64,000 nt of DNA from Opitutales bacterium (GCA_051117635.1 JBNPEH010000021.1:21673-85672), one strand, 5' to 3'. Shown: positions 4,291 to 39,794, counted from the first letter of the stretch. The notes: a model not told the origin generated them from the sequence alone. Program-made: numbers and translations.

Positions 4291-4297
4291 CCTCTTA

Positions 4298-5251
4298 ATG
4301 CCTGTAACTCTATCGATAGTAATCAATAATTACAATTATGCCCATTTCCTTGGTCAAGCAATTGAAAGTGCCATTGCTCTAGAATGGTCGCCCAAGGAGG
4401 TGATTGTTGTGGACGATGGGTCAACTGATAATTCTAAAAATGTTATTTTAAATTTTAGAGATAAGATAAAATATGCATTTAAAGAAAATGGTGGTCAAGC
4501 ATCCGCCTTTAACAAAGGTTTTGAATTGGCAACCGGTGATTATGTTTGGTTTTTGGATGCTGATGACTACATAAGGCCAGATTCAGTCAGGCATTTAATC
4601 AAAGCACTCTCTTCATCACCTGAAATTTGTCATTTTAATTTTTCTACTATACGGTCTGACGGGTCGTTAATTAAAAATAAAGCTGCTAATAAATTTCCAT
4701 CTAACTACGTTGATGAGAAATGCATTTCCTCCACATTAAAATCGTGGTATCCGCCTACATCAGCAAATGTCTTTAAGATGAAATTGTTACAAAAAATATT
4801 TCCAATACCAAATGTTTGGAGGATAAGTGCAGATACTTTTCTTATTCTAAATTCAAGAATGGAGGGCGAGTATTGCTTTTATAACGAGGCGATTGTCGCT
4901 TATCGAATTCATGAGCAAAATAATTTTAACTTACTAGTACAAAAACCAGACAAGCAACGCCTATCAAATATTGGTTGGACTATGTATCGTAAGTACATTC
5001 TGACTGAAAATTTGTTCTATAAAAATACTAAGAAGCGCCCACCTCATCCCTTGATGAGTCCGGGTGAATTGTTTAACATGCTTTATCTGCCAAAATTAAA
5101 TAAAGATTCACCGATTACTTGTTTAGAAATAATGTTTCTAATGCTTAGATTTGATAAAAAGGAAATTTTCTCAAACTGGAAGGTGATTTTAAAGTTCGCT
5201 TTGTTACTTTTCCTTCCACTTAAATTTGTAAAAAAAGTTAAATCAAAATGA
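4298..5251 (+). CDS. family-2 glycosyltransferase
   Basis: 'LSIVINNYNYAHFLGQAIESA', 'VIVVDDGSTDNS' and the DxD motif 'WFLDADDY' are present. Confidence 0.8.
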   Translation: MPVTLSIVINNYNYAHFLGQAIESAIALEWSPKEVIVVDDGSTDNSKNVILNFRDKIKYAFKENGGQASAFNKGFELATGDYVWFLDADDYIRPDSVRHLIKALSSSPEICHFNFSTIRSDGSLIKNKAANKFPSNYVDEKCISSTLKSWYPPTSANVFKMKLLQKIFPIPNVWRISADTFLILNSRMEGEYCFYNEAIVAYRIHEQNNFNLLVQKPDKQRLSNIGWTMYRKYILTENLFYKNTKKRPPHPLMSPGELFNMLYLPKLNKDSPITCLEIMFLMLRFDKKEIFSNWKVILKFALLLFLPLKFVKKVKSK

Positions 5252-6111
5252 ATATTGTTCTTACATCTAACCGGGCTTTCTTAGTAAGAACATTTGCAAC
5301 AATTTTTTCTATTGAAAAATTTAGTTCTGTTAAAAACAAATACTTTATTTTAATTGAAGAAAATAATAAGAATCTATCTAATAGGATAAGTCAATTTTCT
5401 GAAATGTACGGATTTGACATTTGCTATATTGAAATAGACAGGCAGCTTTTTAACGGATTGCCAATTAATTCTAGAATTAGTAGTGAGACATACTTTAGAT
5501 TAGCGATTCCCACAATATTTAAAGGTCGCTATTCTGAACTGGTTTATGTCGACTCTGATTTTCTTTTTTTAGATGATATAGAACGTTTAATACCCAAAAC
5601 CAAAATGGAAAAATTCCTGTCTGCAGTCCCTGATCCATTAATTTGTAGAGGAGGACATAAAGAGAATTGGAGAGACACTTCATATTTTAATGCCGGACTA
5701 TTAGTATTTAATTTAAATCAGAATCATAATTTGATTCAATATGCCCAAGAAAACATTAGATTTATTCTAAGTAAAGAAGATCCTTACCTTTTTGATCAAG
5801 ATATCTTAAACTACTACTTAAATGGAGATTTCATCCAAATGCCCTACAAATGGAATATGCAAACAAAGTTCTTTAAACGAATTAATCTAGCTAAAAAGAA
5901 AGGGCTAACTAGTGAAGATTTTTTAAAACCAGCTGCTATTCATTTTTCCGGAAATTTAAAACCTTGGATTCGCGGAGTTTATCATCCATATAAAGATATT
6001 TATCTAAGCCATCTATCTGAACTAATCGATGATGCCGATTGCGTTAAAAAAGCACCCCTCAGGGTGATCAGTTTTAAAATTGCCCAATTTCTTTCAATCT
6101 TTGAAAAATAA
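5248..6111 (+). CDS. family-8 glycosyltransferase (RfaJ/LgtC-like)
   Basis: ATGA overlap with the upstream gene. DxD motif in 'VYVDSDFLFLDD'; C-terminal 'IHFSGNLKPW' is typical of GT8. Confidence 0.75.
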   Translation: MNIVLTSNRAFLVRTFATIFSIEKFSSVKNKYFILIEENNKNLSNRISQFSEMYGFDICYIEIDRQLFNGLPINSRISSETYFRLAIPTIFKGRYSELVYVDSDFLFLDDIERLIPKTKMEKFLSAVPDPLICRGGHKENWRDTSYFNAGLLVFNLNQNHNLIQYAQENIRFILSKEDPYLFDQDILNYYLNGDFIQMPYKWNMQTKFFKRINLAKKKGLTSEDFLKPAAIHFSGNLKPWIRGVYHPYKDIYLSHLSELIDDADCVKKAPLRVISFKIAQFLSIFEK

Positions 6112-6113
6112 CA

Positions 6114-7439
6114 ATGGAATTCAGAATTGCCAGATGTGTTTTTTATAGTGTTTTCTTTGTCATTCTTTTTTTGCCTCTGCGGGGAGACCTTTTATTTTCT
6201 ATCGTCGGCTGTGTGTTTCTGCTAGATATAGCTATAATTTATTTGGGAAAACGTAGTCAATTGAATCCGATTTCCTTTTTTCAACTGGGATTTATTTTTA
6301 TATTATGCATGGAGGGTATTTTTAGCTATAAAATAATAAGTGGTATTGTTGGCGAAGATAATGTTGATTTCGCTGTTCAGTTGCTAAGTCAAGGAGGAGC
6401 TCTCTTAATTTTAGGTTATTTGGTTTGTGAGAAGGAAGTTGGTAGGCATGGGATGCTGTTTTTGAAAAATCCCGCCCACGGCAAAAATTTAGTAATTTTA
6501 TTTTATATAATTTGTATATACCAATTCCTTCCGATGGCGTATTTTACTATTCGGTTTGGCAGGCATTATGGCTATGGGAATGAATTCGCAGCGATAAATA
6601 TATTACCATCCTTTCTAGTCTTTCCCCTTTTTATTATTTCAATTCTTGCCCCGTCCCTTATATGTATTTATTTTAAAGCAATCGGTTGTAGGAATTGGAC
6701 AAGAAAAAGCTTGATTTACGCTGCCCCTTTACTTCTTTTAATTATTTTAGGGGGAAGAAGATATATGATTTTATATGCCTTTCTTCCCGTTATTTTTATT
6801 TGTTTTGGTGGCCAAGATCTCCAACTTAAAAAAATTATCCGACTATCAGTTGTAGGCCTTTTAATTTTAGCCAGCGCGGTGTCGACTTATTATTTAAGAT
6901 GGGGAATCGATAATCTTTCCGTGGACCTTCTCCAAGAGCGAGTTTTTGATGTATCTACTACTTTTAATGAGAATGCAGTTCGAAGAATGGCTTTAGCGAC
7001 AGATTATTATCGTTTTGAAAGTCATGAACCTTTCCATAACACCGCATATATTTTCACTTTTTTCATCCCTCGAGTTTTTTGGCAAGATAAACCAATAAAA
7101 ATGGAGATTTGGTTTCCTCAAGTATACGAAAGGGAACGTCGCAGATCATCATATTCTGCGAGTATGAGCTTTATGGCCCCATTCTATGGGGATTTTGGTT
7201 ACGGGCTATCCCTAGTTTTTGCTTGCCTGTTGGGGGTATTTATTTCCTTTATTCGAAATCTATTAACAAGCCGCCTCTTACAAATGGGACAATTTACGGA
7301 TGCTATTAATGGTGTATTGGCAGCGGGATTGTTTTTTTTGCCAAGGCAACTTGGAACAGCTTGGGCCCAGACAATTGGATTTTTAATCATTATAATTGCT
7401 ATAAGATTTTTCTTCTTCTCAAGGTATGAAAAAGTTTAA
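6114..7439 (+). CDS. polytopic membrane protein, putative O-antigen/EPS polymerase (Wzy-like)
   Basis: 441 aa with roughly ten or more hydrophobic segments and no soluble domain. It is embedded between glycosyltransferase genes. The function is inferred from context. Confidence 0.5.
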   Translation: MEFRIARCVFYSVFFVILFLPLRGDLLFSIVGCVFLLDIAIIYLGKRSQLNPISFFQLGFIFILCMEGIFSYKIISGIVGEDNVDFAVQLLSQGGALLILGYLVCEKEVGRHGMLFLKNPAHGKNLVILFYIICIYQFLPMAYFTIRFGRHYGYGNEFAAINILPSFLVFPLFIISILAPSLICIYFKAIGCRNWTRKSLIYAAPLLLLIILGGRRYMILYAFLPVIFICFGGQDLQLKKIIRLSVVGLLILASAVSTYYLRWGIDNLSVDLLQERVFDVSTTFNENAVRRMALATDYYRFESHEPFHNTAYIFTFFIPRVFWQDKPIKMEIWFPQVYERERRRSSYSASMSFMAPFYGDFGYGLSLVFACLLGVFISFIRNLLTSRLLQMGQFTDAINGVLAAGLFFLPRQLGTAWAQTIGFLIIIIAIRFFFFSRYEKV

Positions 7440-8280
7440 TTTGTTTATAATTGGGGCCCAAAAGACAGGTTCTTCGTATTTACATTTCTTGCTTTTAAAT
7501 CAAAATGAAATAAGTGGTCCAAGAGAGGAGATTGATAGTTTTGATCTTCCTAATGGAAAGCTGAATTTTCCTCTCCAAAACACTCCATATAGGTTGTGTA
7601 AACGAGCAAATTTGTTGGCAAATCTTGACGCCGCAAATAGGATTCATAAGTATAACAAGGATGCTAAAATCCTAGTAGTCCTACGAAACCCTGTTAGTAG
7701 GTTAGAATCTTCGATTCGTCATTATATGAGACTAGGACTTCTGGAGTTTAAACCCTTAGATTTTTATGGCGCGAAAATTTTAAACGATAATTGGTCTGAA
7801 TTAAATAAACCGTTGCAACTTGCTGTCCAATTCTCGCTTTATGGGAAGTATCTTTTAGAATGGATCAAGATCTTTGGCTGTCAGCAAGTTTTAATTATAA
7901 AAGAAAATGAAATAAAATCAAAAGAGTGTTTAAAGCATATGTTAGAAGGATTTCTTTGCTTGAAATCTCCCCTAGTTTTTAAGAATATAAGCAATGCGTA
8001 TAGCAAAACAATACCAAATAATTATAATCTTTACAAGTTAAGTAATCGTTCGGCGAAATTTTTTTGGAAAAGACAAGGCGAATGCAAAATTAAAAGAAGG
8101 AGGCCTATTTTCTTAAGCCGCACAGTAAATTATGTGCTCTTAAGAACTTTCATCTTTTGTTTTAGAGCGGAAGATGTGAAAGGCAAAAAATTGTTGGCCT
8201 TTTCCCCGGAATTTAGAAGTAGTCTGTTTGTAATCTTTAAAGAAGATCAAAGACTATTATCTACCTTAGTGAAATCTTGA
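7426..8280 (+). CDS. PAPS-type sulfotransferase family protein
   Basis: 'FIIGAQKTGSSYL' resembles the 5'-phosphosulfate-binding loop and 'VVLRNPVSRLESS' the 3'-phosphate-binding motif. Confidence 0.6.
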   Translation: MKKFNLFIIGAQKTGSSYLHFLLLNQNEISGPREEIDSFDLPNGKLNFPLQNTPYRLCKRANLLANLDAANRIHKYNKDAKILVVLRNPVSRLESSIRHYMRLGLLEFKPLDFYGAKILNDNWSELNKPLQLAVQFSLYGKYLLEWIKIFGCQQVLIIKENEIKSKECLKHMLEGFLCLKSPLVFKNISNAYSKTIPNNYNLYKLSNRSAKFFWKRQGECKIKRRRPIFLSRTVNYVLLRTFIFCFRAEDVKGKKLLAFSPEFRSSLFVIFKEDQRLLSTLVKS

Positions 8281-9428
8281 AAATTATAATTTACTGGGAA
8301 TATTTCCAACGCTACCACAATGCGCGTTTGTCAGCGTTGATTCGTCTGGCTGAGAAGCAGGGTCATTTAGTTCTCCCGGTTTCCCTTTCAGAAAAAGGCC
8401 ACCATGGCCATCGAACCGAGCGCGATCCGTTTGTTGACTCCAGAGCCATTCATCTTGCAGGCAAACAAGCATCGCGGCCTATCAATGATCCCGTCATCGT
8501 TGATCAGTTCGTTGACCTTTTAGAAAAAGAAAGGCCCGATGTTGTTTCCATTGTGGGTTGGTATGGGCGCGGTACTTATCGAATTTTAAAATGGGCAAAA
8601 AAAAATTCTAAAAAGATTATTTTATTGCTGGCCGGAAGCCAACATGACAAACGGCGTAATCCACTGAAAGAGGCCTACAAGCGCTATTTTATTTTGTCCA
8701 AGGTTGATGCTGTTCTTTGCGGAGGTAAACCGCATGTCCGATATGCCTCCCGTTTGGGAATGAACAAGTCCTCAATTTTCACCGGTTACAATGCTGTGGA
8801 CAACGACTTCTGGGCTTCAGCGGGCGAAGAGTCCCGAATGCGGTCCAGGGAACTCGCCGATAAGCTGGGCTTTCGCCCGAAACAATTCTTTGTTACGGCT
8901 GGGCGGTTTATCCCCAAGAAAAATTTTGAAGCCCTTATTGAGCAATATTCTTATTACCGTGCTCAATTTTGTGCTGAGCCATGGGATTTAGTAATCGTGG
9001 GCGACGGTGAGTTACGCCCACGGTTGGAATTTAAAATCACTCAGCTTGGCCTGAACAATCACGTACACCTCCCAGGCTACCTTTCGAGTGAAGAATTGGC
9101 CCCTTATTTTGGACTGGCCGGCGCTTTCGTTCTACCAAGTTCTGGTTTTGAACAATGGGGATTGGTCGTAAATGAGGCGATGGCAGCCGGTTTGCCGGTC
9201 ATCGTGAGTACCGTGTGTGGGTGTTGTGAGGATCTTGTTGTTGATGGGGAAACCGGCTTCAGCTTTTCGCCTGAAAGGATGGATGACCTGGCTCTCGCAA
9301 TGGAAAAGATTTCAGGTGATGAAGCAATGCGGGATAAAATGGCTTCTCTGGCTGCGAAACATATTCAAGGTTATTCTTCTGACGTCTTTGCTACCAACTT
9401 CCTCAAAGCCTGCAAACATTGTAAGTAA
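8277..9428 (+). CDS. GT4 (GT-B fold) glycosyltransferase
   Basis: TTG start overlaps the upstream TGA. EX7E region 'GFEQWGLVVNEAMAAGLPVIVS...GETGF' is present. Confidence 0.8.
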   Translation: MKIIIYWEYFQRYHNARLSALIRLAEKQGHLVLPVSLSEKGHHGHRTERDPFVDSRAIHLAGKQASRPINDPVIVDQFVDLLEKERPDVVSIVGWYGRGTYRILKWAKKNSKKIILLLAGSQHDKRRNPLKEAYKRYFILSKVDAVLCGGKPHVRYASRLGMNKSSIFTGYNAVDNDFWASAGEESRMRSRELADKLGFRPKQFFVTAGRFIPKKNFEALIEQYSYYRAQFCAEPWDLVIVGDGELRPRLEFKITQLGLNNHVHLPGYLSSEELAPYFGLAGAFVLPSSGFEQWGLVVNEAMAAGLPVIVSTVCGCCEDLVVDGETGFSFSPERMDDLALAMEKISGDEAMRDKMASLAAKHIQGYSSDVFATNFLKACKHCK

Positions 9429-9443
9429 TTATTATAAAGGTTC

Positions 9444-10520
9444 ATGGCGACGTTAACCATTCATGCAACCAACGTGACAGGACTTGGAGCAAGCCAGGTC
9501 GTCGTTTCCTTTCTGGAGGCATTGGACAAAGCTAACACTACCTTCTCCGAAATTTTGTGCTACGTTCCGGAATCCGGACCGGTGGCGGAGTTCAAACCTG
9601 GTTCTGATTTTTTCCATGTTTTCCCCTACAAACGTCTCGGTCCCAAAGCAATCAGCCGTGCACTGGAATGCCTTTTCCCCGGATTATTTTTTAAATCATC
9701 CGATCTGTTAATTGTGTTGGGGGACGTGCCCTTGCGGGTCAGAACTCAGCAAATCGTGCTTGTCCACCAGCCCCATTTGCATAGTCCGCGTGTTAATCCC
9801 TGGGTTGGACGGTCTCTGACCTATCGCTTGATGCGTGGGTTGACGCGTCTCAATGCGAAGTTTGCCAGTCAGGTTATCGCGCAGACCAATGCGATGGCTG
9901 AAGGCCTGAAAGAATCCTATGAAAATTGGCGCCAACGAGATTGTTTGACTGTGATTGGTCAGCCGCCTCCCTCGTGGTTCCGAACCGATGGGCGTCAGGA
10001 GCGGTTGATCGGGGATGCGGACGGACTTCGGCTTTTCTACCCGGCAGCGGATTACCCACACAAAAACCATCAAATTTTCGAAGGGTTGCTTAGGTTGGAC
10101 GTGTCTGGGCTTGTTGAACGGATCACCTTGACTGTACCCGACGGGCGAATTGCTCATTCAAGTAAATGGCTGTATTGTGTCGGCCGCCTCAATCATGAAC
10201 AGTGTCTTGAGGCTTATCAATCGGCGGATGCTCTAGTCTTCCCATCTGTTCTAGAAAGTTATGGTTTACCCTTGGTCGAAGCCATGGTGATGGGTCTGCC
10301 AATACTGGCATCCGATCTGCCCTATGCGAGGGCACTTTGTGGTGGCGTCGCTATATACTTTGATCCCAAATCGCCGGAAAATTTGCTGGCTGCCTGTACC
10401 GAATTGAAACAGCGGCTTGGTGATGGCTGGAAACCGGATTGGTCAGCACAGCTCCAAAAAATGCCTCCGAATTGGTCAGAAGTCGTGAGTGCTTTCTTGC
10501 GCCTGGCTGACAGCAAATAG
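9444..10520 (+). CDS. GT4 (GT-B fold) glycosyltransferase
   Basis: 'FPSVLESYGLPLVEAMVMGLPILASD' is the EX7E-type C-terminal motif. Confidence 0.7.
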   Translation: MATLTIHATNVTGLGASQVVVSFLEALDKANTTFSEILCYVPESGPVAEFKPGSDFFHVFPYKRLGPKAISRALECLFPGLFFKSSDLLIVLGDVPLRVRTQQIVLVHQPHLHSPRVNPWVGRSLTYRLMRGLTRLNAKFASQVIAQTNAMAEGLKESYENWRQRDCLTVIGQPPPSWFRTDGRQERLIGDADGLRLFYPAADYPHKNHQIFEGLLRLDVSGLVERITLTVPDGRIAHSSKWLYCVGRLNHEQCLEAYQSADALVFPSVLESYGLPLVEAMVMGLPILASDLPYARALCGGVAIYFDPKSPENLLAACTELKQRLGDGWKPDWSAQLQKMPPNWSEVVSAFLRLADSK

Positions 10521-10521
10521 C

Positions 10522-11355
10522 ATGCAAAATCCCATTATCATACTTGGGGCACCAAGAAGCGGGACCACCATCCTCGGTGAGATTTTATCTGCCCATCCCG
10601 ATCTGCATTACCTTGTTGAGCCGAATCCCTTGTGGCGTCGCTACGTAAGATCGCGTTGCGACTACTTTAATTTAGAACAAGAATGGGATGCAGTAGAACC
10701 TACCAAGGGCCTGTTCGAATCTGAAATGCGGAAATCATTGAAGATGAGGCTTCTGGAGAAGACACCGCAAAACTGTCTTAGAGTTCCATTTGTGGATGCA
10801 GTCTTTCCCGATGCAAAGTTTGTTCATATTTTGCGGGATGGCGTGGAGTCTTCTTTGTCAATTGCCAGGTATTGGCAAAAGCACACGCATGGGTTTCGGG
10901 GGGTTCGTCTGCGTCAACGTCTGAGGGAGGCTTCGCTGCAGCAACTGCCGCGATATGGGATCCAGGCATTCAAGCGATTGTTGCCTGCGGGCACGAAGCC
11001 ACGGGTATTCTGGGGACCTGTGTTGCCGGGAATGGGGCAAATGGTCGATTGCATGAGCATCACGGAGGTTGCCGCCATGCAATGGCGCATGTGCGTCGAG
11101 CAGGCAACCTTCCATGGACGAAAACTCCCTCCGAATCAGTATTTGGAACTGCGCATCGAGGAGTTCAACAAAGAGAAATTGAAGCAAGTCATCGAGTTTG
11201 TGGGCTTGTCGAGCGAATCATCTGTGTTTGAGGCAGCCGAGGAACGCTTCATCAGAGACCAGACAGCGCATCGAATTGCTGAAGCAGACGAGAAAGAGGT
11301 AGAGCTTGTAAAACGCTGGGTGCTGCCGACGATGAAGTGGCTTGGTCAGCTTTAA
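10522..11355 (+). CDS. sulfotransferase family protein
   Basis: ATG 10522 lies 2 nt after the upstream stop. 'IIILGAPRSGTTILGEIL' is a PSB-loop-like segment and 'HILRDGVESSLS' is 3'-PB-like. Confidence 0.65.
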   Translation: MQNPIIILGAPRSGTTILGEILSAHPDLHYLVEPNPLWRRYVRSRCDYFNLEQEWDAVEPTKGLFESEMRKSLKMRLLEKTPQNCLRVPFVDAVFPDAKFVHILRDGVESSLSIARYWQKHTHGFRGVRLRQRLREASLQQLPRYGIQAFKRLLPAGTKPRVFWGPVLPGMGQMVDCMSITEVAAMQWRMCVEQATFHGRKLPPNQYLELRIEEFNKEKLKQVIEFVGLSSESSVFEAAEERFIRDQTAHRIAEADEKEVELVKRWVLPTMKWLGQL

Positions 11356-11359
11356 TGCC

Positions 11360-13411
11360 ATGGATGATCTTTCAAAGTATTTACTGACTGTTCTTTCGGC
11401 TTTCCTGATCTCCCTCGGCATCACCCGCCTGATGATCTCTCTCGGCCCGAAGCTCGGGCTGATCGATCACCCGGACGCGCGCCGGATCCACCGGACCCCG
11501 ATTCCGCGCGCGGGTGGACTTGCGGTGTTTCTGGGTTTCCATTTGTCGGTCCTCGGCTTGTATTTCCTCTGGTGGCCCGACTTTCAGGGTCAGTTGGACT
11601 TTGGCTGGTGGGAAGGCTTTTTCCTGGCGTCGGTTTTGTTGCTGGTGGTCGGTCTGCTGGACGACGCCCGCGGCCTGCCGCCGCTGGTGAAACTGGCGGG
11701 TCAGGCAGCGGCGGCGCTGGCGCTCTTTTTGACGACCGGGAGCAGCTTTGCGACTTTGCTGGGCTTTCAGCTGCCGCTGGCTTTGGATCTGGTGCTGACC
11801 GTCGTCTGGTGTCTGGCGCTGATCAATGCCTTTAATTTGATCGACGGCATGGACGGGCTGTGTGCCGGCCTGGCGATTGTCTCGGGGCTGGGCATTGCGG
11901 CCGCCTTTGTGTTGCGGGGCGTGCCCGGCGACGGGATCGTGGTCCTGGCGCTGATCGGCGCTTGTCTGGGGTTTCTGCGTTATAACTTCCATCCGGCGCG
12001 TATTTTTCTGGGGGACACCGGCTCGATGTTCATCGGCTTTCTGATGGCGGCCATGGCGCTGGGCGCAGCGGGTAAATCGACGGTCCTGGTGGCGCTGGGC
12101 ATTCCCTTTCTGGCGGCAGGGGTACCGGTCATCGACACCGTGCTGGCGATCTGGCGTCGGACGATGCGCCGGCTGGTGCGCAAGTATGAGGGCTCGGATG
12201 ACGGCCCGAAGGTGACGGGCGCGGATCGCGATCACCTCCATCACCGCCTGCTGGCGTCCGGGCTCTCACAGCGTCGCGTGGCGCTGCTGCTCTATGCGGC
12301 CAATGCCCTGCTGGTCGTGGTGGCCCTGGTCTGGATTTCGATCAACCGGTCGACGGTCGGCCTCTTCCTGGCCCTCTTCCTCGGCGCGGCCTATGTGGTG
12401 ATCCGGCATATCGTGCACATCGAGGTGTGGGACACGGGTCGCGCGATGGTCCAGGGGCTGAAGCGTCCAAGCAAGGGCTCGGTGTTTGCACTGATGCTGC
12501 CCTTCTGGGATCTGGCCTGTCTGACGCTGGCATTCATGGCCGCGTTTGCGATGGAGGATCCCAACACGGCCAAGGCCTTGTCGCTTGCCGACTGGGTGAA
12601 CCTGTTCCCCTTCTGGGTGACGCCGGTCTTTCTGATGCTGGTCTTTTTCCGCGCCTATGTGCGCGTCTGGACCCGGTCCACCTTCATCGACTTTCTCTAT
12701 CTGGCCATCGCGCTGGGGACCGGCGGGGTGTTGGCCTTTGCGCTCAACGCCGCCTGGACAGCCAACCTGAGTTGGTCGCAGCTGCAGGTCGCGCTGGTGA
12801 TGCTGTTGCTGGCGGCGGCCGGCATCGGCGGCATCCGCAGCCTCCCCCAGCTGCTCCGCGAGTGGATGGTCATGACCGCGCAGGAGGACCGCACCGGCGG
12901 CCGCTACCGCGTCAAAAACCTGCTGCTCTATGGCGCGGGCGACCGCGGCTCGCTCTTCCTGCGTCAGCTCCGCTTTGTGCATCCCGACGAGATGGCGACT
13001 CGGCGTGTGGTCGGCTTTATCGACGACAACCGGAACCTGCGGCGGCGCTACTCCTACGGCGTCCAGGTGCTCGGCACCTTTGCCGAGCTGCCGCGGATCC
13101 TCAACGAACACGCAATCGACGAGGTGATCGTCACCGCCGCCCTCCCCGAGGCGCGGCTGCGCGAACTGCGCGCCGCCGCCGAGGCCGCTGAGGTCGCGGT
13201 CTATACCTGGCAGGGCCGGACACAGCCGCTGGCCCAGATCCGCAAAGCCGCGTCACCCCAGACGCTGTTCCCGGATACCGAGCAGAAAGGCGCCGCCCCA
13301 GGCCAGGACCCCGGCCAGCAGCACGCTGGGACTGAACAGCACAAAGTCGACGAGCGCGTGGACCAGCCAGCCCGCCAGCGTGACCCCGCCGACGGCGAGC
13401 AGCCAGCCTGA
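11360..13411 (+). CDS. WecA/MraY-family polyprenyl-phosphate sugar-1-phosphate transferase fused to four extra TM helices and a CapD/PglF-type linker domain
   Basis: ATG 11360; the track start at 11342 is a TTG. WecA motifs 'NAFNLIDGMDGL' and 'FLGDTGSMFIGF' are present. The C-terminal 'NLLLYGAGDRGSLFLRQL...VVGFIDDNRNLRRR..VQVLG...IDEVIVT' resembles the N-terminal linker domain of WbpM/PglF/CapD. The last ~53 codons run antisense to the next gene. Confidence 0.75.
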   Translation: MDDLSKYLLTVLSAFLISLGITRLMISLGPKLGLIDHPDARRIHRTPIPRAGGLAVFLGFHLSVLGLYFLWWPDFQGQLDFGWWEGFFLASVLLLVVGLLDDARGLPPLVKLAGQAAAALALFLTTGSSFATLLGFQLPLALDLVLTVVWCLALINAFNLIDGMDGLCAGLAIVSGLGIAAAFVLRGVPGDGIVVLALIGACLGFLRYNFHPARIFLGDTGSMFIGFLMAAMALGAAGKSTVLVALGIPFLAAGVPVIDTVLAIWRRTMRRLVRKYEGSDDGPKVTGADRDHLHHRLLASGLSQRRVALLLYAANALLVVVALVWISINRSTVGLFLALFLGAAYVVIRHIVHIEVWDTGRAMVQGLKRPSKGSVFALMLPFWDLACLTLAFMAAFAMEDPNTAKALSLADWVNLFPFWVTPVFLMLVFFRAYVRVWTRSTFIDFLYLAIALGTGGVLAFALNAAWTANLSWSQLQVALVMLLLAAAGIGGIRSLPQLLREWMVMTAQEDRTGGRYRVKNLLLYGAGDRGSLFLRQLRFVHPDEMATRRVVGFIDDNRNLRRRYSYGVQVLGTFAELPRILNEHAIDEVIVTAALPEARLRELRAAAEAAEVAVYTWQGRTQPLAQIRKAASPQTLFPDTEQKGAAPGQDPGQQHAGTEQHKVDERVDQPARQRDPADGEQPA

Positions 13412-14965
13412 GGTCCGCCGCGCCCAGACCAGCCAGCCGAGGAGCGAGCCCAGCAGCAATAGTGCTCCCGGACGCCCAACCTCGATTGGGATCTGCAGCC
13501 AGTCGTTGTGAGCGTAGTCGGCGCGCCTGAACCGGTATTGCTTTTTTTTATGGTTATACCACCAGCTATACCAGATTTCCGGATATTGCCTTTGGTATAC
13601 AGGGAAAAGATAACGCCATCCTCCTGCACCGACACCGTAAGCGGGGGAATCGGACAAATAATCAAGGCTGGCCATATAAAGATACTTTCGTGTCCCAACA
13701 GAACCTCCAAAAGAATACTCTTCTTTTGATTGCACTTGAGACACTTGGTCTCGAATCAGCTGAATCGACTGCTTGGGGCGGTCTAATGCACCATCTTTAA
13801 AAATTAAAAGACCCCAACAAATGACCAAACCAATGAGAGGAAACATAATAATTGCCCATTTAGGAGATAATTCTACAGAGAAAAATTTTTCTGCAGCTAG
13901 CTTTAGTAAGGAAGAAAAAGTTAAAACGAAAGCAAGAGCAAAACCGATAGCGATGCCTCCCACTGAGGTTGAGTAAGCAATAGATGCAAGAAGGCAAAAC
14001 CCACACAAAACCAAAAAAGGAATGGGCGTGGAACCGGATGGGTAACTTTGAGCTTTCCTCCAGTAATGAAGGATCAAGAGCCAGGTGATCCCCAGATTCA
14101 AATATAGGAAGGCAGCCGTGTGATTTGGATAATTGAAGGTTCCATAGAATTCCCTGTTGCTGGGCCTGAATACGCCAAGAATACGTTTTGATTCATTTGC
14201 TTCCTGCACGATGCCGAACAGCGCCATGGCGGTGGCGGAGAGCACGGCGATCCAGAGCAGGTAGACGATGGGGCGTCGGGACCGGCAGCCGGCGACGAGC
14301 CCCATGACGGCCAGCCAGGTGAGGGACCAGTGCAGGAGCGCGCGCCAGGCATTCATCTCCGCGAAGGGTGCGGCGATGCTGGTCGGCAGCCATTTGATGT
14401 GGTCGATTTTGACCAACCACCATTGCGTGCCCTCGGTCCGGTATTCCCAGGCCGGGTTGAGCGCCTGGATCAGGATGTAGAGGAGGAAGGCCCCGCCCAG
14501 CCAGAACGGGGGGAAGCGACGCAGCCGACGCCAGCCGTCGGCACAGTCGTAGCGCCAGCGCGCGTCGCCTAGCGGCAGCCAGGCCAATGAAAAGGTCAGG
14601 GCAGCGAGGCTCCAGAGCAGCCAGAGTGACCAGACGCGCATCCCGCCGAGGCTCCAGCCGCTCGCGATCACCAGCAGGCTAGCCGCGGTCAGGACCGCCC
14701 ACTGACGGCGTCCCAGCGGCGCGCGCTGCGCCGGCTCGCCAAAGCGTCGACGCGACCGCAGGCGCTTGAAGCGCGGATCCGCCTGAGTGTCCGACGTCGT
14801 ATCGGCGGAGCGCCGTCGCCGGTGCGCGCTGCGGTTGGGTGCCGGTTCCCGGGATGCCACGCAGGGAGGATCAGGCAACGGCGCCACGAGCGCAACGCGG
14901 TTTGAGGGGATTCGGTAACCGCGAAGCCGCGAAGGCGGGGAAGGGAGGCGCCAAGGACGGGACAC
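13253..14965 (-). CDS. O-antigen ligase / Wzy_C-family membrane protein
   Basis: Multi-TM protein with 'YAHNDWLQIPIEVG' (Wzy_C-like). The N-terminus is uncertain because the GTG start at 14965 lies inside repeat copy A. An alternative GTG at 14860 lies just outside the repeat. Confidence 0.7.
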   Translation of the reverse strand: MSRPWRLPSPPSRLRGYRIPSNRVALVAPLPDPPCVASREPAPNRSAHRRRRSADTTSDTQADPRFKRLRSRRRFGEPAQRAPLGRRQWAVLTAASLLVIASGWSLGGMRVWSLWLLWSLAALTFSLAWLPLGDARWRYDCADGWRRLRRFPPFWLGGAFLLYILIQALNPAWEYRTEGTQWWLVKIDHIKWLPTSIAAPFAEMNAWRALLHWSLTWLAVMGLVAGCRSRRPIVYLLWIAVLSATAMALFGIVQEANESKRILGVFRPSNREFYGTFNYPNHTAAFLYLNLGITWLLILHYWRKAQSYPSGSTPIPFLVLCGFCLLASIAYSTSVGGIAIGFALAFVLTFSSLLKLAAEKFFSVELSPKWAIIMFPLIGLVICWGLLIFKDGALDRPKQSIQLIRDQVSQVQSKEEYSFGGSVGTRKYLYMASLDYLSDSPAYGVGAGGWRYLFPVYQRQYPEIWYSWWYNHKKKQYRFRRADYAHNDWLQIPIEVGRPGALLLLGSLLGWLVWARRTSGWLLAVGGVTLAGWLVHALVDFVLFSPSVLLAGVLAWGGAFLLGIREQRLG

Positions 14966-15350
14966 GCGCGGGGAGGATTAACCACGAAGAACACGAAGAG
15001 ACACGAAGGGCTTGTTCGCCGGGAAGGGAAGGGCGCTGTCCCGCGCAGCGGGACTTTTGAGTGCGGTGACTCCGATCACCGCTTTGACTTTAGGCGCCTC
15101 TCCGAGGCGCTGTAGGCCACGCCAGGGGGCCTGCGGCCTACACTCGTTGAGCTTCGGCGGACACAGCCGGCACGGCCCGCTAAACCCGGCGCTCGGGGAC
15201 GAGCGCCCTCCCCACCTTCGTCCTCCGGACTACGGCGGGCAATCCCGAGGACAACCCCCACACGGCGGACCAGCCGTTGCGCTCGTTGCGTGAGCCTCCC
15301 GTGCTTGTCCCGGCGTAGTCCCCGTTCCGGGGACGCAGACGGACGACTCC
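14881..15350 (+). mobile_element. structured repeat, copy A (MITE-like; inverted termini at 14881-14900 and 15274-15292)
   Basis: The ~200 bp core is near-identical to copies B and C. The left end 'GCCACGAGCGCAACGCGG' is the inverse of the right end 'CCGTTGCGCTCGTTGCGTG'. The boundaries are approximate. Confidence 0.7.
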
Positions 15351-15405
15351 AGCCAGTGGTGGCGGTGCCGTGCCGCTGCGGCGCTGTGCGAACGCCCAGA
15401 GCGAT

Positions 15406-15699
15406 TTAAGCCTCTGTCCGCCGGGCGTAGCCCGTCTCCGGTTCGTAGACCAGGGGAAAGGCCTCGGGCTGTTGGATGGCCTCCAGCGACAAGTCGACAT
15501 CCAGGGCGGGCCAGCGCAGGTGTTCGGGCCCCTCGGCCTGAACGGCAAAGACCGCCTGAACGGGAGCCTGGCGGAACCAGGGAAAGGTTTCGAAGGGGAG
15601 AAAGTATTCCTTCTGACCGAAAAGCAGCCAGACACCGAACGGGGAGATGTCGGTGACCTCAGGTGCGGAAGTGGCGGTCCCAGTGCGCGCGGATGTCAT
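15406..15699 (-). CDS. DUF2442 domain protein
   Basis: 'FLPFETFPWFRQAPVQAV...HLRWPALDVDLSLEAI' matches the DUF2442 C-terminal pattern. The start could be ATG 15699 or 15717. Confidence 0.6.
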   Translation of the reverse strand: MTSARTGTATSAPEVTDISPFGVWLLFGQKEYFLPFETFPWFRQAPVQAVFAVQAEGPEHLRWPALDVDLSLEAIQQPEAFPLVYEPETGYARRTEA

Positions 15700-15763
15700 C
15701 GGCCTTATCTTCAACAATTGCGCGGAGTTCCGTCAACGCCCGGGGGGAATACACCAACCGCCA
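15659..15763 (-). pseudogene. DUF4160-family remnant (C-terminal ~34 codons only)
   Basis: 'SPRALTELRAIVEDKADDIRAHWDRHF' resembles the C-terminal helix pair of DUF4160 proteins, the usual partner of DUF2442. The upstream part of the ORF is repeat-derived sequence. Confidence 0.35.
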
Positions 15764-15780
15764 AGGTGCGAAGGCCGCGA

Positions 15781-15857
15781 CGGGCGGGAGTCGTCCGTCT
15801 GCGTCCCCTGTCCGGGGACTGCGCCGGGATAAGCGTGGGGGCGGTTCACGCAACGAC
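15781..15857 (-). repeat. inverted partial copy of the structured repeat's right end
   Basis: 15787-15806 is the exact reverse complement of 15331-15350. The fragment abuts the left terminus of copy B. Confidence 0.7.
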
Positions 15858-16197
15858 GCCACGGGCGCAACGCGGATTGAGGGGATGAGGTAACCGCGAA
15901 GCCGCGAAGGCGGGGAGGGGCTTGCACGCCGGCGAGGGGGAGGGCTGTCCCGCGCAGCGGGACTTTTGAGTGCGGTGACTCCGATCACCGCTTTGACTTT
16001 AGGCGCCTCTCCGAGGCGCTGTAGGCCACGCCAGGGGGCCTGCGGCCTACACTCGTTGAGCTTCGGCGGACACAGCCGGCACGGCCCGCTAAACCCGGCG
16101 CTCGGGGACGAGCGCCCTCCCCACCTTCGTCCTCCGGACTACGGCGGGCAAGCCGGCTAATGCGCCACCGCGGACCAGCCGTTGCGCTCGTTGCGTG
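15858..16197 (+). mobile_element. structured repeat, copy B (shorter; lacks the ACCACGAAG-rich module)
   Basis: Same termini and core as copies A and C. Confidence 0.7.
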
Positions 16198-16252
16198 AGC
16201 CTCCCATTTTACCGCTTGGCGGAAACCCCGCGCCGGCCCACGCTTCTGCGCG

Positions 16253-17509
16253 ATGGCCCGGTTTCTCTTCCTGACGCAGGTGTATCCGCCTGACCCGGCG
16301 GCGGTGGGGCAGTACCTGGCCGATGCCGCCGAGGCGCTGGTTCAGGCCGGCCATACCGTCACCGTGCTGACCGCGCGCGCGGGGTTTGACGACCCGAGCG
16401 TCCGCTATGCGCCGCGCGAAACACGCAACGGGGTCACGGTCATCCGGCTGCCGGGCACGAGCTTCGGCAAGCGCAACCTGATTATGCGCCTCCTCGGCGC
16501 GACCTCCTTCCTGGCGCAGGCGCTGGTGCGGCCCTTATTCGGCGGGCGCATCGACCGGATCGTCGCGACGACGGCCCCGCCGATGGGCGGCTTTGGCGCC
16601 TGGTTGCTGGCCAGCCTGAAACGCACGTCGTTCGCCTGGTGGGTGATGGATATCAATCCGGACCAGGCGGTGCGGCTGGGGGCGTTCGGACCCCGGCATC
16701 CGGCGGTACGTGTCTTTGACTGGGCCAACCGACGCGTGTTGCCCGGCGCGCACCGCGTCATTGCGCTCGATCCGCACATGGCGGCAACGCTCCGCGCGAA
16801 AGTCCCGCTGTCCGACGACCGCCTCAAGGTGATCCCGCCCTGGTCGATGGACGACCACCTCGAACCGGTGCCGTCCGCGAAAAATCCCTTCCGGGCCGAG
16901 CACGGGCTGGATGGGCAGCGGGTCATCCTCTACAGCGGCAACCACAGCCCGGCGCATCCGCTCGACACGCTCTTTCGCGCCATTCCGGACCTGGACCCCG
17001 ACGACGGACTGCGGTTTCTCTTCATTGGCGGGGGCAAGCACAAGGCGGACATCGCCGCGTTTTTCCGCGAGCACCCCAGTCCCCAGGTGCAGCAGCTGCC
17101 CTATCAGCCGCTGGACCGGATCCGCTATTCGTTGTCGGCGGGCGATGTCCATGTCGTGAGCCTGGGCCCGCCGATGGTCGGCGTGGTGCATCCCTGCAAG
17201 GTCTACGGGGCCCTCGCCCTCGGGAAGCCCCTCCTCTTTATCGGGCCGACCGATAGCCATGTCGGTGAGATCCTCGATGCCACCGGCTGCGGCTGGCGAA
17301 TCGAGCCGGGGGATACCCACGGAATGGAACAGGTGCTGCACGCCATCGCCGATCTCCCCGAAGCCGAGCTCGCCGCGATGGGCCAACGCGGCGCCGCCTA
17401 CGCCCAAAAACACCTGTCCCAGGCCATCCTGATCCCGCGCCTGGTGGCCGAGCTGACCGACGGGGTTCCCCATGAACCGCCAAGGCGCCACGAGCGCAAC
17501 GCGGATTGA
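16253..17509 (+). CDS. GT4 glycosyltransferase (WcaI-like)
   Basis: The N-terminus 'MARFLFLTQVYPPDPAAVGQY' is typical of WcaI-type GT4 enzymes. The last ~8 codons and the TGA (17507-17509) lie inside repeat copy C. Confidence 0.75.
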   Translation: MARFLFLTQVYPPDPAAVGQYLADAAEALVQAGHTVTVLTARAGFDDPSVRYAPRETRNGVTVIRLPGTSFGKRNLIMRLLGATSFLAQALVRPLFGGRIDRIVATTAPPMGGFGAWLLASLKRTSFAWWVMDINPDQAVRLGAFGPRHPAVRVFDWANRRVLPGAHRVIALDPHMAATLRAKVPLSDDRLKVIPPWSMDDHLEPVPSAKNPFRAEHGLDGQRVILYSGNHSPAHPLDTLFRAIPDLDPDDGLRFLFIGGGKHKADIAAFFREHPSPQVQQLPYQPLDRIRYSLSAGDVHVVSLGPPMVGVVHPCKVYGALALGKPLLFIGPTDSHVGEILDATGCGWRIEPGDTHGMEQVLHAIADLPEAELAAMGQRGAAYAQKHLSQAILIPRLVAELTDGVPHEPPRRHERNAD

Positions 17510-17991
17510 GGGGATGAGGTAACCGCAAAGCCGCGAAGGCGGCGAAGGGCTGGTACGCCGGCAAGGGGGGAACCACGAAGAGCACCAAGAAGCACAAAGG
17601 GCTTGTTCGCCGGAGAGGGGAGGGCTGTCCCGCGCAGCGGGACTTTTGAGTGCGGTGACTCCGATCACCGCTTTGACTTTAGGCGCCTCTCCGAGGCGCT
17701 GTAGGCCACGCCAGGGGGCCTGCGGCCTACACTCGTTGAGCTTCGGTGGACACAGCCGGCACGGCCCGCTAAACCCGGCGCTCGGGGACGAGCGCCCTCC
17801 CCGCCTTCGTTCTCCGGACTACGGCGGGCAATCCCGGGGACAACCCCCACACGGCGAACCAGCCGTTGCGCTCGTTGCGCTCGTTGCGCTCGTTGCGTGA
17901 GCCCCCCACGCGCTTGTCCCGGCGTAGTCCCCGTTCCGGTGGTGACGGTCCTTCGCGTGCCCCCTTCCGTCCTTGGCTCCTTTGCGGTTAC
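17485..17991 (+). mobile_element. structured repeat, copy C (longest; 9-bp GTTGCGCTC triplication at 17864-17890; outer inverted module ending 17991)
   Basis: Same core as A and B. 'GTAACCGCAAAG' (17519-17530) is inverted at 17980-17991. Confidence 0.7.
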
Positions 17992-18737
17992 AAAATAGCC
18001 AGTAAATCCGTGATCTCCGCCGCGAGGCCGGTGGCGCCCGCATCCAGCCAGCGCTCGCCCTTGGCGCGGGTGGCCTGGGTGGCGTCGCCCATGGTGCCGG
18101 TGGGCGAGACATCGGCGGTGACCCAGCTGTAGGTGGCCGGCGCGAATTCGGGTCGCAGTTCGCCCGGGGCGTCGACATCGCCGATCCAGCAGCAGTCGCG
18201 TTTGTCCGTATCGACCAGATCGGTGGCGGCCATCAGCCAGCTGGTCTCGCCTTCGCCGGCGTGGATGCCGTACTGTGCCTCACGCTCCGAGTGGACATCG
18301 AAGTCGGCGCGAAAGCGGAGCTGGACCGCCTGCAGGCCGTGCGTGTCCTGGACCTCGCGGAGCGTCTGCTCGAGGACGGCGCTGTTGCCGCCGTGGGTGT
18401 TGAGGATGGCGAGGGCACCGAAACCCAGCCCGGCGGCCTCCTCCGCCACGGCCAGCACCAGCCGCCGGAGCGTGGTGCGCGAAAGGATCAGGGTGCCGGG
18501 ATAGCCCGCGTGTTCGTTGCTCTTGCCGATGGTGATGGGCGGGGCGACGTAGACCGGGGCGTCGTCGGGCAGCTTCGGGGCGGTCCACTGGAGCCAGACC
18601 TGGCCCATGAGCGCATCGACGCCGACCGGCAGGTGCGGGCCATGCTGCTCGATCGCCCCCGTCGGCAGGATCAGCACGGCTTTGGCAAAGTCGGTAGCCT
18701 CGATTTGGGTCAGGGTGAGGGAGGCGAGGGAGATCAT
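17988..18737 (-). CDS. creatininase (creatinine amidohydrolase) family metal-dependent hydrolase
   Basis: Family motifs are intact: 'AIEQHGPHLPVGVD', 'ILNTHGGN', 'HAGEGETS'. Confidence 0.8.
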   Translation of the reverse strand: MISLASLTLTQIEATDFAKAVLILPTGAIEQHGPHLPVGVDALMGQVWLQWTAPKLPDDAPVYVAPPITIGKSNEHAGYPGTLILSRTTLRRLVLAVAEEAAGLGFGALAILNTHGGNSAVLEQTLREVQDTHGLQAVQLRFRADFDVHSEREAQYGIHAGEGETSWLMAATDLVDTDKRDCCWIGDVDAPGELRPEFAPATYSWVTADVSPTGTMGDATQATRAKGERWLDAGATGLAAEITDLLAIL

Positions 18738-18815
18738 GGGTTCGGGGTTCCGCCGTCGCTCGGGGAGCTATGGCGGACAAGTCGGGGTTCGAGGTTCGAC
18801 GTTCGGGGTTCGACG
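18738..18815. repeat. GGTTCNN heptad-periodic intergenic repeat
   Basis: 'GGGTTCGAGGTTCGACGTTCGGGGTTCGACG' read directly from the sequence. Confidence 0.6.
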
Positions 18816-18980
18816 TGCTGTGTGGCGAGGGTGGTTGGAAATGATACTGCCGGCGTGTCGGAGACCCGCCTCCCAAAGCGGCGAAGGATACGCCGCACTC
18901 AAAAGGTCGGTCTTGGATAACATCTACTGAGCTGAAGGTTCTTCAGGGTGGATGAGTCAAACCAGGAAAATTCTGATTTT

Positions 18981-19014
18981 CAGAACACAGAACGTAGAAC
19001 GCCGAACTTAGAAC
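18981..19014. repeat. NNGAACN heptad-periodic repeat (inverse orientation of 18784-18815)
   Basis: 'CAGAACACAGAACGTAGAACGCCGAACTTAGAAC' read directly from the sequence. Confidence 0.6.
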
Positions 19015-19877
19015 TTTCCCCGCGTCTCAATCCGCCCGTCGTTCTTCAGGGGCGGCCATTCGTGGATTTCGGTGAGGAGGCCGGCGAGGCGGGTGGCGCG
19101 GGTGGCGAGGAGGTCGGGGCCGGTTTTTTCGGCCTCGGCCCGGTCGGCGGGAGAGTCCGTGAGGGCCGGGATGCCATCGGCAAAATCGCCGGGTCGGAAG
19201 GTTCGCTGTTCGGGGTTCGACGTTCCAGGTTCGCTGTTCTGCACCCGATGATCGTCCTGGCTCTGACGAGGGTTTTCTGGCTTCTGCCTGCTGCCCTGCC
19301 GTGAGCCTGTCGAAGGGCCCTCCGACCCCTCGGGGCCTTGCCCCGACAGGAAGGTCGCCAGGGTCTGGGCCTCATGGCGCGTCTTGCTTCTGCCCGGATG
19401 CAGGTCGATATCGAGCCCGGCCAGGTTGACGCAGAAGAGCTGAAGGCCTTTTTCCTGACGCAGGTCGCGTCCGCAGACGTCGATAAAGGCCTCGTTCCAG
19501 GGACTGGTGTTGAAGAGGACGAGTTTGCGGAAGCCGGCCATCGCGATGCTGTCCGCGATTTCGAAGACCTGCTGGTAGGCGGTCTCGGGGTCGATACCGA
19601 AGAGGGCTGACCCGCGGTAGCCCGGCGGCACGAAGCGGACGGGTGGCGCCACCAGCAGCGGCAGCCGGTCCTTTGCCTCGGTCACCGCCGCCTTCAGGAT
19701 GCCGAGCCCCAGCGTCTCCTCGAGGTCCATCGGATGCCCGAGGCCCCAGTCGCTCATGCCGATCACCGGCAGGATGATGAGCGTCTCCGCCCTGGCGTCA
19801 GCGGACTGTTCGGCAAACCAGGGCGAGGGCTGGTGCGCCCAGAAGGTGGTGGGTTCGACGTTGGCGAGGAGGGACAT
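19008..19877 (-). CDS. creatininase-fold paralogue with degenerate metal-binding motifs and a low-complexity insertion
   Basis: Collinear with 17988..18737, but the motifs read 'SDWGLGHPMDLEE', 'LFNTSPWN' and 'RHEAQT'. An insertion of roughly 50 aa ('GPEGSEGPSTGSRQGSRQKPENPRQSQDDHRVQNSEPGTSNPEQRT') is encoded by intergenic-type repeat DNA. Confidence 0.6.
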   Translation of the reverse strand: MSLLANVEPTTFWAHQPSPWFAEQSADARAETLIILPVIGMSDWGLGHPMDLEETLGLGILKAAVTEAKDRLPLLVAPPVRFVPPGYRGSALFGIDPETAYQQVFEIADSIAMAGFRKLVLFNTSPWNEAFIDVCGRDLRQEKGLQLFCVNLAGLDIDLHPGRSKTRHEAQTLATFLSGQGPEGSEGPSTGSRQGSRQKPENPRQSQDDHRVQNSEPGTSNPEQRTFRPGDFADGIPALTDSPADRAEAEKTGPDLLATRATRLAGLLTEIHEWPPLKNDGRIETRGKF

Positions 19878-19900: not shown

Positions 19901-19936
19901 GCGGGGGGGAGGTTCTAGGTTCGGCGTTCTATGTTC
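19901..19936. repeat. GGTTCNN heptad-periodic repeat
   Basis: 'AGGTTCTAGGTTCGGCGTTCTATGTTCTAGGTTCTG' read directly from the sequence. Confidence 0.55.
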
Positions 19937-19976
19937 TAGGTTCTGGGATCGACGGAGCGAAGCGGAGATGGCGCAA

Positions 19977-20044
19977 GCAAATCCAAATCGAAATCGAAAT
20001 CGAAATCGGGATCGAGATGGAGATTGGGATGGGGATTGGGATTA
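19977..20044. repeat. hexamer-periodic microsatellite (AAATCG)n degenerating to GATTGG
   Basis: 'AAATCCAAATCGAAATCGAAATCGAAATCGGGATCGAGATGGAGATTGGGATGGGGATTGGGATTA' read directly from the sequence. Confidence 0.65.
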
Positions 20045-39619: not shown

Positions 39620-39720
39620 GGGGACGAGGGTCGAGGATGAGGGTCTGCGGGGTTTCCGCGGGAGGGCGGTCGTCCCCGACCGCCGGCTGGTACCTGAATC
39701 GGCTGTCAATCCCTGCCCCC

Positions 39721-39794
39721 TGCCAACTGACGACTGCCAACTGACGACTGCCAACTGACGACTGCCAACTGACGACTGCCAACTGACGACTGCT
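39721..39794. repeat. perfect tandem repeat, 14-bp unit CCAACTGACGACTG x5
   Basis: Read directly from the sequence. It ends about 25 nt upstream of the sulfatase ATG. Confidence 0.9.

Follow-up and report, generated by a model that had tools for sequence, protein, structure and literature searches.

A hairpin-rich repeat of nested inverted arms in three copies beside a glycan locus of an uncultured Opitutales bacterium

Introduction

The sequences termed repetitive extragenic palindromic (REP) are short, GC-rich stem-loops that lie outside genes, often at the 3′ ends of open reading frames (ORFs), with stems that vary by complementary changes; they occur as singletons, as inverted dimers, or in larger mosaic clusters together with other motifs, the bacterial interspersed mosaic elements (BIMEs), and have been proposed to end transcription, to stabilise mRNA, and to serve in recombination. 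A high enrichment of GTAG REPs is reported for Opitutus terrae, where they gather into clusters (BIMEs) and sometimes lie at ORF ends (Di Nocera et al., 2013, PMC3733652), and inverted REP doublets, the REPINs, are mobilised by REP-associated tyrosine transposases (RAYTs) (Bertels and Rainey, 2011, PMC3116915). Here we describe a hairpin-rich, non-coding block that is repeated three times at the end of a glycan locus in an uncultured Opitutales bacterium (Verrucomicrobiota), within a stretch of 64,000 nucleotides (GCA_051117635.1 JBNPEH010000021.1:21673-85672) that we call the window. We hold with moderate confidence that the block is a lineage-specific composite palindromic intergenic repeat of BIME-like type, amplified in place where a conserved creatininase-family gene pair meets the variable glycan locus, with a core homogenised by gene conversion.

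Other described systems share part of this design. Miniature inverted-repeat transposable elements (MITEs), among them the Correia elements of Neisseria, ERIC, RUP, and Nezha, are foldable, non-coding sequences of 100-600 bp that end in terminal inverted repeats and can supply terminators or stop codons, all of which has a counterpart here. In integron cassette arrays, such as those with the Vibrio cholerae repeats, near-identical imperfect palindromes with AAC...GTT boundary boxes (attC sites, 57-141 bp long) stand between single genes, and the capsular polysaccharide loci of Bacteroides carry invertible promoter segments, surface-glycan loci being a typical place for phase variation. The initial annotation of the window took the block for either a MITE-like element or a structured non-coding RNA gene family; both proposals fared poorly, as there was no target-site duplication, no Rfam match, and no exact match to the core in the genome and metagenome collections searched.

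Architecture of the three copies

The block is present as three direct copies of 340-430 bp, all in the same orientation (+ strand) and within 3 kb, in a region where the order is Wzy_C ligase-like gene, copy A (14864-15300), DUF2442 gene, copy B (15837-16205), family 4 glycosyltransferase (GT4) gene, copy C (17477-17907), and the creatininase pair. Each copy has at its centre a 205-nt core (A, 15036-15240; B, 15945-16149; C, 17625-17829) that is identical between A and B (205/205) and matches at 202/205 positions (98.5%) between A and C and between B and C, much as the initial annotation had it when it described three direct copies with a nearly identical core of about 200 bp. Around this unique centre the unit consists of nested, interleaved inverted arms: on the + strand it reads inverted X, T, CGCGAAG arm, CACGAAG arm (A and C only), core with hairpins H1 to H5, variable stretch, T′, and X, with copy A following this order from T to T′. 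The arms are arrays of 9-nt periodic units of the types CGCAACG, CGCGAAG, and CACGAAG.

The left terminus T (GGGAGGATCAGGCAACGGCGCCACGAGCGCAACGCGG; A, 14864-14900; B, 15837-15875; C, about 17477-17505; +) is the inverted form of the 9-nt array (CGTTGCGCT)n that forms the right terminus T′ (CCGTTGCGCTCGTTGCGTGAGCCTCCC; A, 15274-15300; B, 16179-16205; C, 17863-17907; +). That the ends are mutually inverted had been claimed and is borne out: the window contains the 12-mer ACGAGCGCAACG eight times, where 0.5 would be expected, every time at a copy end, on the + strand at left ends and the - strand at right ends, and the inverted termini ACGAGCGCAACG and CGTTGCGCTCGT agree perfectly over 12 nt and at 94% over 17 nt, with an imperfect extension to about 35-45 nt. 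The symmetry reaches further out than claimed, past the termini to GGGAGGMTCASGCAACG and module X, which contains a hairpin with a GTAG tag (GTAG TCCCCG-ttc-CGGGGA). X lies to the right of copy A (15295-15363, +) and, inverted, to the left of copy B (15774-15839, -), which brackets the DUF2442 gene between X and inverted X (66 nt, 83% complementary); there is a partial X right of copy C (17904-17939), a remnant left of A, and no X right of B. The GT4 gene is bracketed by T′ of copy B and T of copy C. Inward of T, the left arm GGTAACCGCGAAGCCGCGAAGGCGGGGAAGGG, made of CGCGAAG units (GGTAACCGCGAAGCCGCGAAGGCGGGG; A, 14914-14945; B, 15889-15920; C, 17518-17549; +), is complementary over 15 nt to CCCCGCCTTCG, directly 3′ of H5. 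The CACGAAG module, GGATTAACC(ACGAAGNNC)x3, is found at 14975-15009 (+) in copy A and in degenerate form at 17571-17601 in copy C.

Outside the core, the copies differ piece by piece. Between copies, left terminus and left arm together match at 64-65 of 71 positions and the stretch directly 5′ of the core at 17-20 of 23-24, while the right terminus is the same at 20/20. The right variable stretch matches at 28/30 between A and C and is replaced in B (16-17/26); by similarity, B goes with C at the left end and A with C in this stretch. Copy B lacks 65 nt that comprise the CACGAAG module (an absence put earlier at about 70 bp) and ends at GAGCCTCCC, 47 nt 5′ of the GT4 start codon. Copy C carries CGTTGCGCT x3.8 in its right terminus and has an outer inverted arm in which 17519-17539 pairs with 17971-17991, and both the 9-bp repeat and the outer module had been correctly recorded. 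The outer arm, a′ (TAACCGCAAAGGAGCCAAGG...; 17960-17991, -), which abuts the creatininase gene, is an inverted counterpart to copy C's left arm. Not one of the three copies has both ends complete.

Centre and edges differ in divergence, which is 8-13% in the arms and 0-1.5% in the core (Fisher p = 2e-7, 8e-4, and 1e-4). Alike cores between diverged arms are the pattern expected from gene conversion, which homogenises centres more than edges, and conversion between direct repeats less than 3 kb apart would keep the copy centres identical; selection on the core may be an alternative cause. The copies themselves would stem from duplication or recombination events in which single genes (DUF2442 and GT4) came to lie between them. 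The modules have been recombined differently in A, B, C, and the related contig L001 described below, which marks the whole as a mosaic cluster.

Module families beyond the window

Two modules of the block, the CACGAAG arm and hairpin H5, belong to families far more widespread than the three-copy block itself. For the first, the pattern GGATTAACCACGAAGNNCACGAAG (22 specified bases, exact in copy A and in L001) was found in at least 120 unrelated metagenome contigs of 0.32 to 0.71 GC and in 3 IMG/VR contigs. Among the matches listed, no other part of the element matches these contigs, and in the usual form a centre of 25-150 nt is flanked by two inverted arms, each with three or four 9-nt units, a partner arm being found in 40/107 cases (median gap, 52 nt); the heptamers are conserved, and the two variable spacer bases are mostly non-complementary between arms. 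Still among those matches, the arms lie directly 3′ of an ORF of at least 100 codons in 66 of 104 cases (63%) versus 91 of 520 control positions, and in 18 cases (17%) the arm's own TAA serves as the stop codon. In the window, the left end of copy C encodes the final 10 GT4 codons and the stop (TGA 17507-17509), in agreement with the earlier statement that copy C supplies this stop, and the final ~13 GT4 residues extend beyond the ends of seven of eight aligned homologues; likewise, arm a′ provides the creatininase gene with its TAA stop codon. In donating stop codons, copy C and arm a′ behave like the wider CACGAAG family.

Hairpin H5 (15188-15207, tail to 15214; +) is REP-like, with a perfect 8-bp stem, a GGGA loop, and a CTCCC tail, and the family to which it belongs has the form GG-N6, GGGA (or GRRA) loop, N6′-CC, then CTCCC. 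The window holds six such hairpins with three different stems: one in each copy (15188, 16097, and 17777) and others at 39665-39684 (-), 41928-41947 (+), and 41979-41998 (-), the last two forming an inverted doublet that resembles a REPIN (41921-42000). The pattern GGCSSYCGGGGACGRSSGCCCTCCC matches 43 stretches in GTDB representative genomes, against a rough chance expectation of 0.1 to a few matches depending on base composition. Its hosts include Kiritimatiellae, Puniceicoccaceae, Chthoniobacterales, other Verrucomicrobia, Hydrogenedentota, Bdellovibrionota, and a 'Proteobacteria' metagenome-assembled genome (MAG) (13 contigs); the loci are often tandem arrays or inverted doublets, and only H5 matches the element there. 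The 68 instances from the window and the GTDB loci fall into more than 20 stem variants, most of them fully Watson-Crick paired. The two families did not co-occur in the sampled loci; neither is in Rfam, where the module-bearing loci gave nothing real, and a search of the open literature by sequence string returned nothing relevant on either. That the two modules belong to independent, widespread families fits a mosaic, BIME-like origin better than descent from one mobile unit. The wider interest of the locus lies in these two families, and most of all in the 9-nt periodic CACGAAG arms that adjoin the 3′ ends of genes in widely differing genomes.

The block resembles REPs and BIMEs in its extragenic position, often at ORF 3′ ends, in its short GC-rich stem-loops with complementary stem changes, in the arrangement of H5 as singletons and a doublet (41928/41979), and in the GTAG tag of the X hairpin. 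It differs from them in being a fixed block of 340-430 bp with a 205-nt centre not seen elsewhere, in having arms that are 9-nt periodic arrays and not simple palindromes, and in that a single hairpin is GTAG-tagged. Inverted H5 doublets with a short spacer, in the window and in several genomes, recall REPINs, but the three-copy block is far larger and holds one H5, not a doublet.

Searches for relatives of the block

Within the window, T, X, and the core occur only at 14.8-18.0 kb, and the other 61 kb have none of them. A solo arm reported earlier at 46344-46445 does exist as a match, but its extent was overstated: it covers 41 nt, at 85% identity to the left arm of copy C (46358-46398). The window data therefore match a local triplication without copies elsewhere, the pattern that the initial annotation had itself set against its proposal. 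Counts of copies here refer to the 64-kb window together with public collections. No exact match to a core 22-mer was found in 185,579 GTDB species-representative genomes, nor to a core 23-mer in JGI metagenomes; IMG/VR yielded no match either to the core 22-mer or to the left-end pattern, and blastn in distant mode with copy A found nothing in plasmids and phages. An Rfam search, one of the checks proposed earlier, gave no match for the whole window at the gathering threshold and none at E<=10 for 14700-18100.

One relative was recovered. L001, a JGI metagenome contig of 1087 nt (Ga0397526_066162, metagenome 3300039107), carries a creatininase gene with 88% nucleotide and 92% protein identity to the window gene, and directly 3′ of its stop codon are X, a diverged T, the left arm, a CACGAAG arm, and the start of a hairpin equivalent to H1, where the contig ends. 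The site is orthologous and the element has the opposite orientation, so that the terminator side faces the creatininase gene in L001 and GT4 here. The X hairpin of L001 (GTAG TCCCGC-tta-GCGGGA, compared with TCCCCG-ttc-CGGGGA in the window) shows two compensatory pairs, and the H1-equivalent hairpin shows one. The arms are about 70-75% identical, below the 88% of the neighbouring gene, and such poor conservation of adjacent modules speaks against the unit as a whole being under strong constraint.

These results bear on whether the block is a non-autonomous MITE-like element, moved by a transposase encoded elsewhere in the genome and inserted at gene 3′ ends, either separately in each place or once with local duplication afterwards. 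A size of 340-430 bp, the lack of coding content, and the perfect 12-nt terminal inverted repeat, which coincides exactly with the limits of the similarity and is seen at no other place in the window, would all suit such an element, as would the homologous element in opposite orientation at the same site in L001 and the break of that contig inside it. Yet target-site duplications, another feature that the initial annotation proposed to look for, are missing around the copies: the sequences outside the termini (X and GGGAGG...) are themselves conserved or inverted between copies and include no short direct duplication. The ends are ragged, no copy being complete at both; all copies lie within 3 kb in one orientation, with neither a copy nor a solo terminus in the remaining 61 kb; and the core and left-end strings are absent from the collections searched. 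No cognate transposase is known: as claimed earlier, no transposase is present in the window, and a scan of its ~50 ORFs, about ten of which have no Pfam match, found no transposase, integrase, recombinase, or invertase domain. Arms about ten times more diverged than the core are not expected after recent transposition, and the individual modules have separate distributions of their own. We therefore consider a MITE unlikely.

Core hairpins, predicted termination, and folding

All five short hairpins listed in the initial annotation are present in the core, H1, H2, H3, and H5 with perfect stems and H4 with a perfect outer stem of 7 bp. H1 (GTCCCGC-gca-GCGGGAC, then TTTT; 15038-15054, +) and H2 (GCGGTGA-ctccga-TCACCGC, then TTTGACTTT; 15063-15082, +) form a tandem terminator-like pair on the + strand at 15038-15092, 15947-16001, and 17627-17681, followed by H3 (15094-15110), H4 (15112-15141), and H5. 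As to the unpaired tag that REPs conserve at one end (GTAG or CGTC), X carries GTAG at 15315, its inverted copy carries GCAG, and H1 carries GCTG; the GTAG of H4 forms part of the stem, and H5 has a conserved GGGA loop and CTCCC tail instead. Folding energies range from -11.7 to -18 kcal/mol (H1, -12.8; H2, -11.7). The core has four perfect hairpins with a stem of at least 7 bp and a loop of 3-8 nt, against a mean of 0.12 in dinucleotide shuffles, none of 1000 of which reaches four; the window average is 0.9 per kb.

H1 and H2 are predicted to be terminator-like on the + strand only, in all copies. The earlier placing of a terminator-like hairpin where a GT4 terminator would be was sound. In copy C, H1 begins 118 nt 3′ of the GT4 stop. 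Judging from sequence, H1 and H2 could act as a one-directional tandem intrinsic terminator or insulator; transcription of GT4 would then end, in copy C, 118 nt past the stop that the element supplies. For copies A and B there is no gene on the + strand to be terminated, as would fit duplication products and not independent selection at each site.

Several observations count against the block being a BIME-like composite with such a role. The core folds better on the - strand (z -4.4) than on the + strand (z -2.3), and a terminator acting on the + strand does not explain this. GTAG-tagged hairpins show no enrichment across the window, and X is the sole carrier of the tag in the element. Among the window ORFs scanned there is neither a Y1 transposase domain nor a RAYT gene, which leaves membership among REPs and BIMEs partial. 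The short-read contig L001 breaks inside the element, as a multi-copy repeat would cause, and dispersed copies elsewhere in the MAG, beyond the 64 kb searched, may exist and would point to a mobile element.

The better folding of the - strand also keeps alive the idea that the copies are genes for a structured non-coding RNA family, or else cis-regulatory leaders. Read on that strand, copies A and B sit 5′ of the ligase-like gene and DUF2442, the hairpin-dense core is more conserved between copies than the arms, and compensatory changes appear in the H5, X, and H1-equivalent hairpins across loci or relatives. The minimum free energy structure of the - strand core, which makes up 13% of the ensemble, also speaks for an RNA. 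Against it, neither the three core substitutions nor the non-Watson-Crick pairs in H5-type stems give a significant or consistent strand bias. The perfect stems, being all Watson-Crick, fit DNA palindromes equally well. A scan with a sigma-70 model, which may not suit this phylum, detected no promoter inside the element; the three copies occupy three different positions relative to genes; no family is visible in Rfam or in the collections searched for core strings; and in L001 the adjacent left modules are conserved less than the gene beside them. An RNA family seems to us quite improbable.

Even less can be said for a small protein encoded in the core, which we find scarcely credible. Both strands have a frame that stays open through the core in every copy, but the + frame has no match at E<=10 among 5.8 billion proteins, the - frame matches only unrelated low-complexity repeat proteins, and the translations are rich in Arg, Pro, and Gly, as out-of-frame GC-rich DNA would be. 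NCBI accession endings are consecutive across copy C (creatininase, 049; second creatininase, 050), and DUF2442 has 047, with GT4 as the sole gene between 047 and 049, which suggests that no annotated coding sequence lies inside copies B or C.

Possible recombination at the locus

The arrangement of repeats offers two routes of rearrangement. With 205-256 nt of near-identity in direct orientation, the copies could allow RecA-dependent deletion or duplication of DUF2442 and GT4 (the initial annotation had already noted that direct repeats flank these genes and are substrates for cassette gain or loss), and the inverted termini and arms could allow flipping, seen as the difference in orientation between lineages. 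If the composite-repeat reading is right, the locus is an example, in an uncultured verrucomicrobial lineage, of mosaic palindromic repeats accumulating between conserved genes and a variable glycan locus. The repeats would there supply stop codons and terminators to newly placed genes, and as direct and inverted repeats would make the genes they bracket easy to lose, duplicate, or flip, which bears on glycan diversity. For assembly and annotation of MAGs it would mean that gene ends and starts fall inside repeats and that contigs break at them.

A stronger version would have the copies serve as dedicated sites at which recombination inverts segments or exchanges cassettes, a switch of the inverton or shufflon kind bordering the glycan locus that changes the direction in which the terminator faces. 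Inverted T/T′ or X/X′ arms stand on both sides of each core and each intervening gene, the termini alternating T, T′, T, T′, T, T′; the element is flipped at the orthologous site in L001; and the site adjoins surface-glycan genes, so that, as in the invertible segments of Bacteroides, homologous segments bounded by inverted repeats lie beside glycan genes and differ in orientation between relatives. Those segments carry promoters, whereas these carry predicted terminators, with no promoter-like site by the sigma-70 scan and no recombinase or invertase in the window ORFs scanned; one copy, C, separates convergent genes. The single orientation difference could be explained by homologous recombination between long inverted arms or by independent acquisition, and all three copies here share one orientation. 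We regard a switch of this kind as distinctly unlikely. Similarly improbable, in our judgement, is the broadest form of the idea, in which the 3-kb stretch is a recombination module that flips or excises both single genes and a one-directional terminator block where the surface-glycan locus ends, a phase-variation or cassette-exchange device built from very widespread, apparently undescribed palindromes of gene 3′ ends, with heptamer arms of 9-nt period that often supply the stop codon.

Single-gene units between homogeneous imperfect palindromes also recall an integron-like cluster in which attC sites bound gene cassettes and the integrase is missing. The boxes GCGCAAC ... GTTGCGC resemble RYYYAAC ... 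GTTRRRY with one mismatch each, and the small DUF2442 gene would be one unit. At 340-430 bp, with boxes about 390 nt apart, the repeats are three times too long for attC sites; they form a series of local hairpins instead of a single long, bulged stem; no integron integrase or tyrosine recombinase domain was found in the ~50 window ORFs; and the bracketed genes, GT4 and DUF2442, run in opposite directions. This makes an integron origin very improbable.

Gene neighbourhood

The backbone of the region is ~65% GC. On the left is the Wzy_C ligase-like gene (13253 to ~14860, -), whose start is uncertain: in-frame starts before the first predicted membrane helix are at 14860, 14878, 14887, and 14965, all in or at the left end of copy A, and the start of the maximal ORF (14965) is inside the copy, as noted earlier. 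Six candidate proteins with alternative starts had no match in the protein collection. Between copies A and B is the DUF2442 gene (15406-15699, -; 97 aa; NCBI MGJ3243047.1), and between B and C the GT4 (WcaI-like) glycosyltransferase gene (16253-17509, +); the GT4 and creatininase proteins are identical to NCBI entries. The two tandem creatininase-family genes follow (17988-18737 and 19008-19877, -). In the 90% clusters, no relatives of DUF2442 or of the second creatininase were found.

The creatininase pair is kept in two distant Opitutales MAGs (L168, 9189-10783; L169, 9311-10786; 56-57% protein identity), where neither the element nor a glycan locus stands next to it and no downstream gene order is shared, the downstream genes there being transporters. 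Because the pair is kept while its downstream genes differ (transporters versus the glycan locus), the repeat cluster marks a break in gene order.

Within the glycan locus, the stretch from 3000 to 11500 is an island of low GC (30-50% versus the ~65% backbone) with GT2, GT8, and GT4 genes, two sulfotransferase genes, and an MptE-like gene; it is probably part of a sulfated-glycan locus and of horizontal origin. All three repeat copies are 3-7 kb past the right edge of the island, not at its border. JUMPstart/ops was tried as an identity for module X and rejected: X contains GGCGTAG, not the ops octamer GGCGGTAG, and the Rfam JUMPstart model does not match.

Other repeats in the window

Arrays of GTTCGNN and its complement with a 7-nt period, which we take to resemble the STRR heptamer repeats of cyanobacteria, lie at 18782-18834, 18981-19024, 19189-19255, and 19907-19959, around and apparently inside the second creatininase-like ORF (289 aa), and an inverted pair of them (44 nt, 84%) brackets that ORF (19008-19877). 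At the same place upstream of the creatininase gene, L001 has different heptamer arrays (CAGTGGT type, 1-110), which suggests that such arrays turn over quickly. A TonB-dependent receptor-like gene has downstream of it a perfect tandem array with a 14-nt unit, CTGCCAACTGACGA x5.3 (39720-39793), which resembles the heptamer arrays of L001. Finally, AAATCG/GGATCG arrays with a period of 6 or 18 are found at 19979-20030 and 42158-42201 in inverted orientation (35 nt, 94%).

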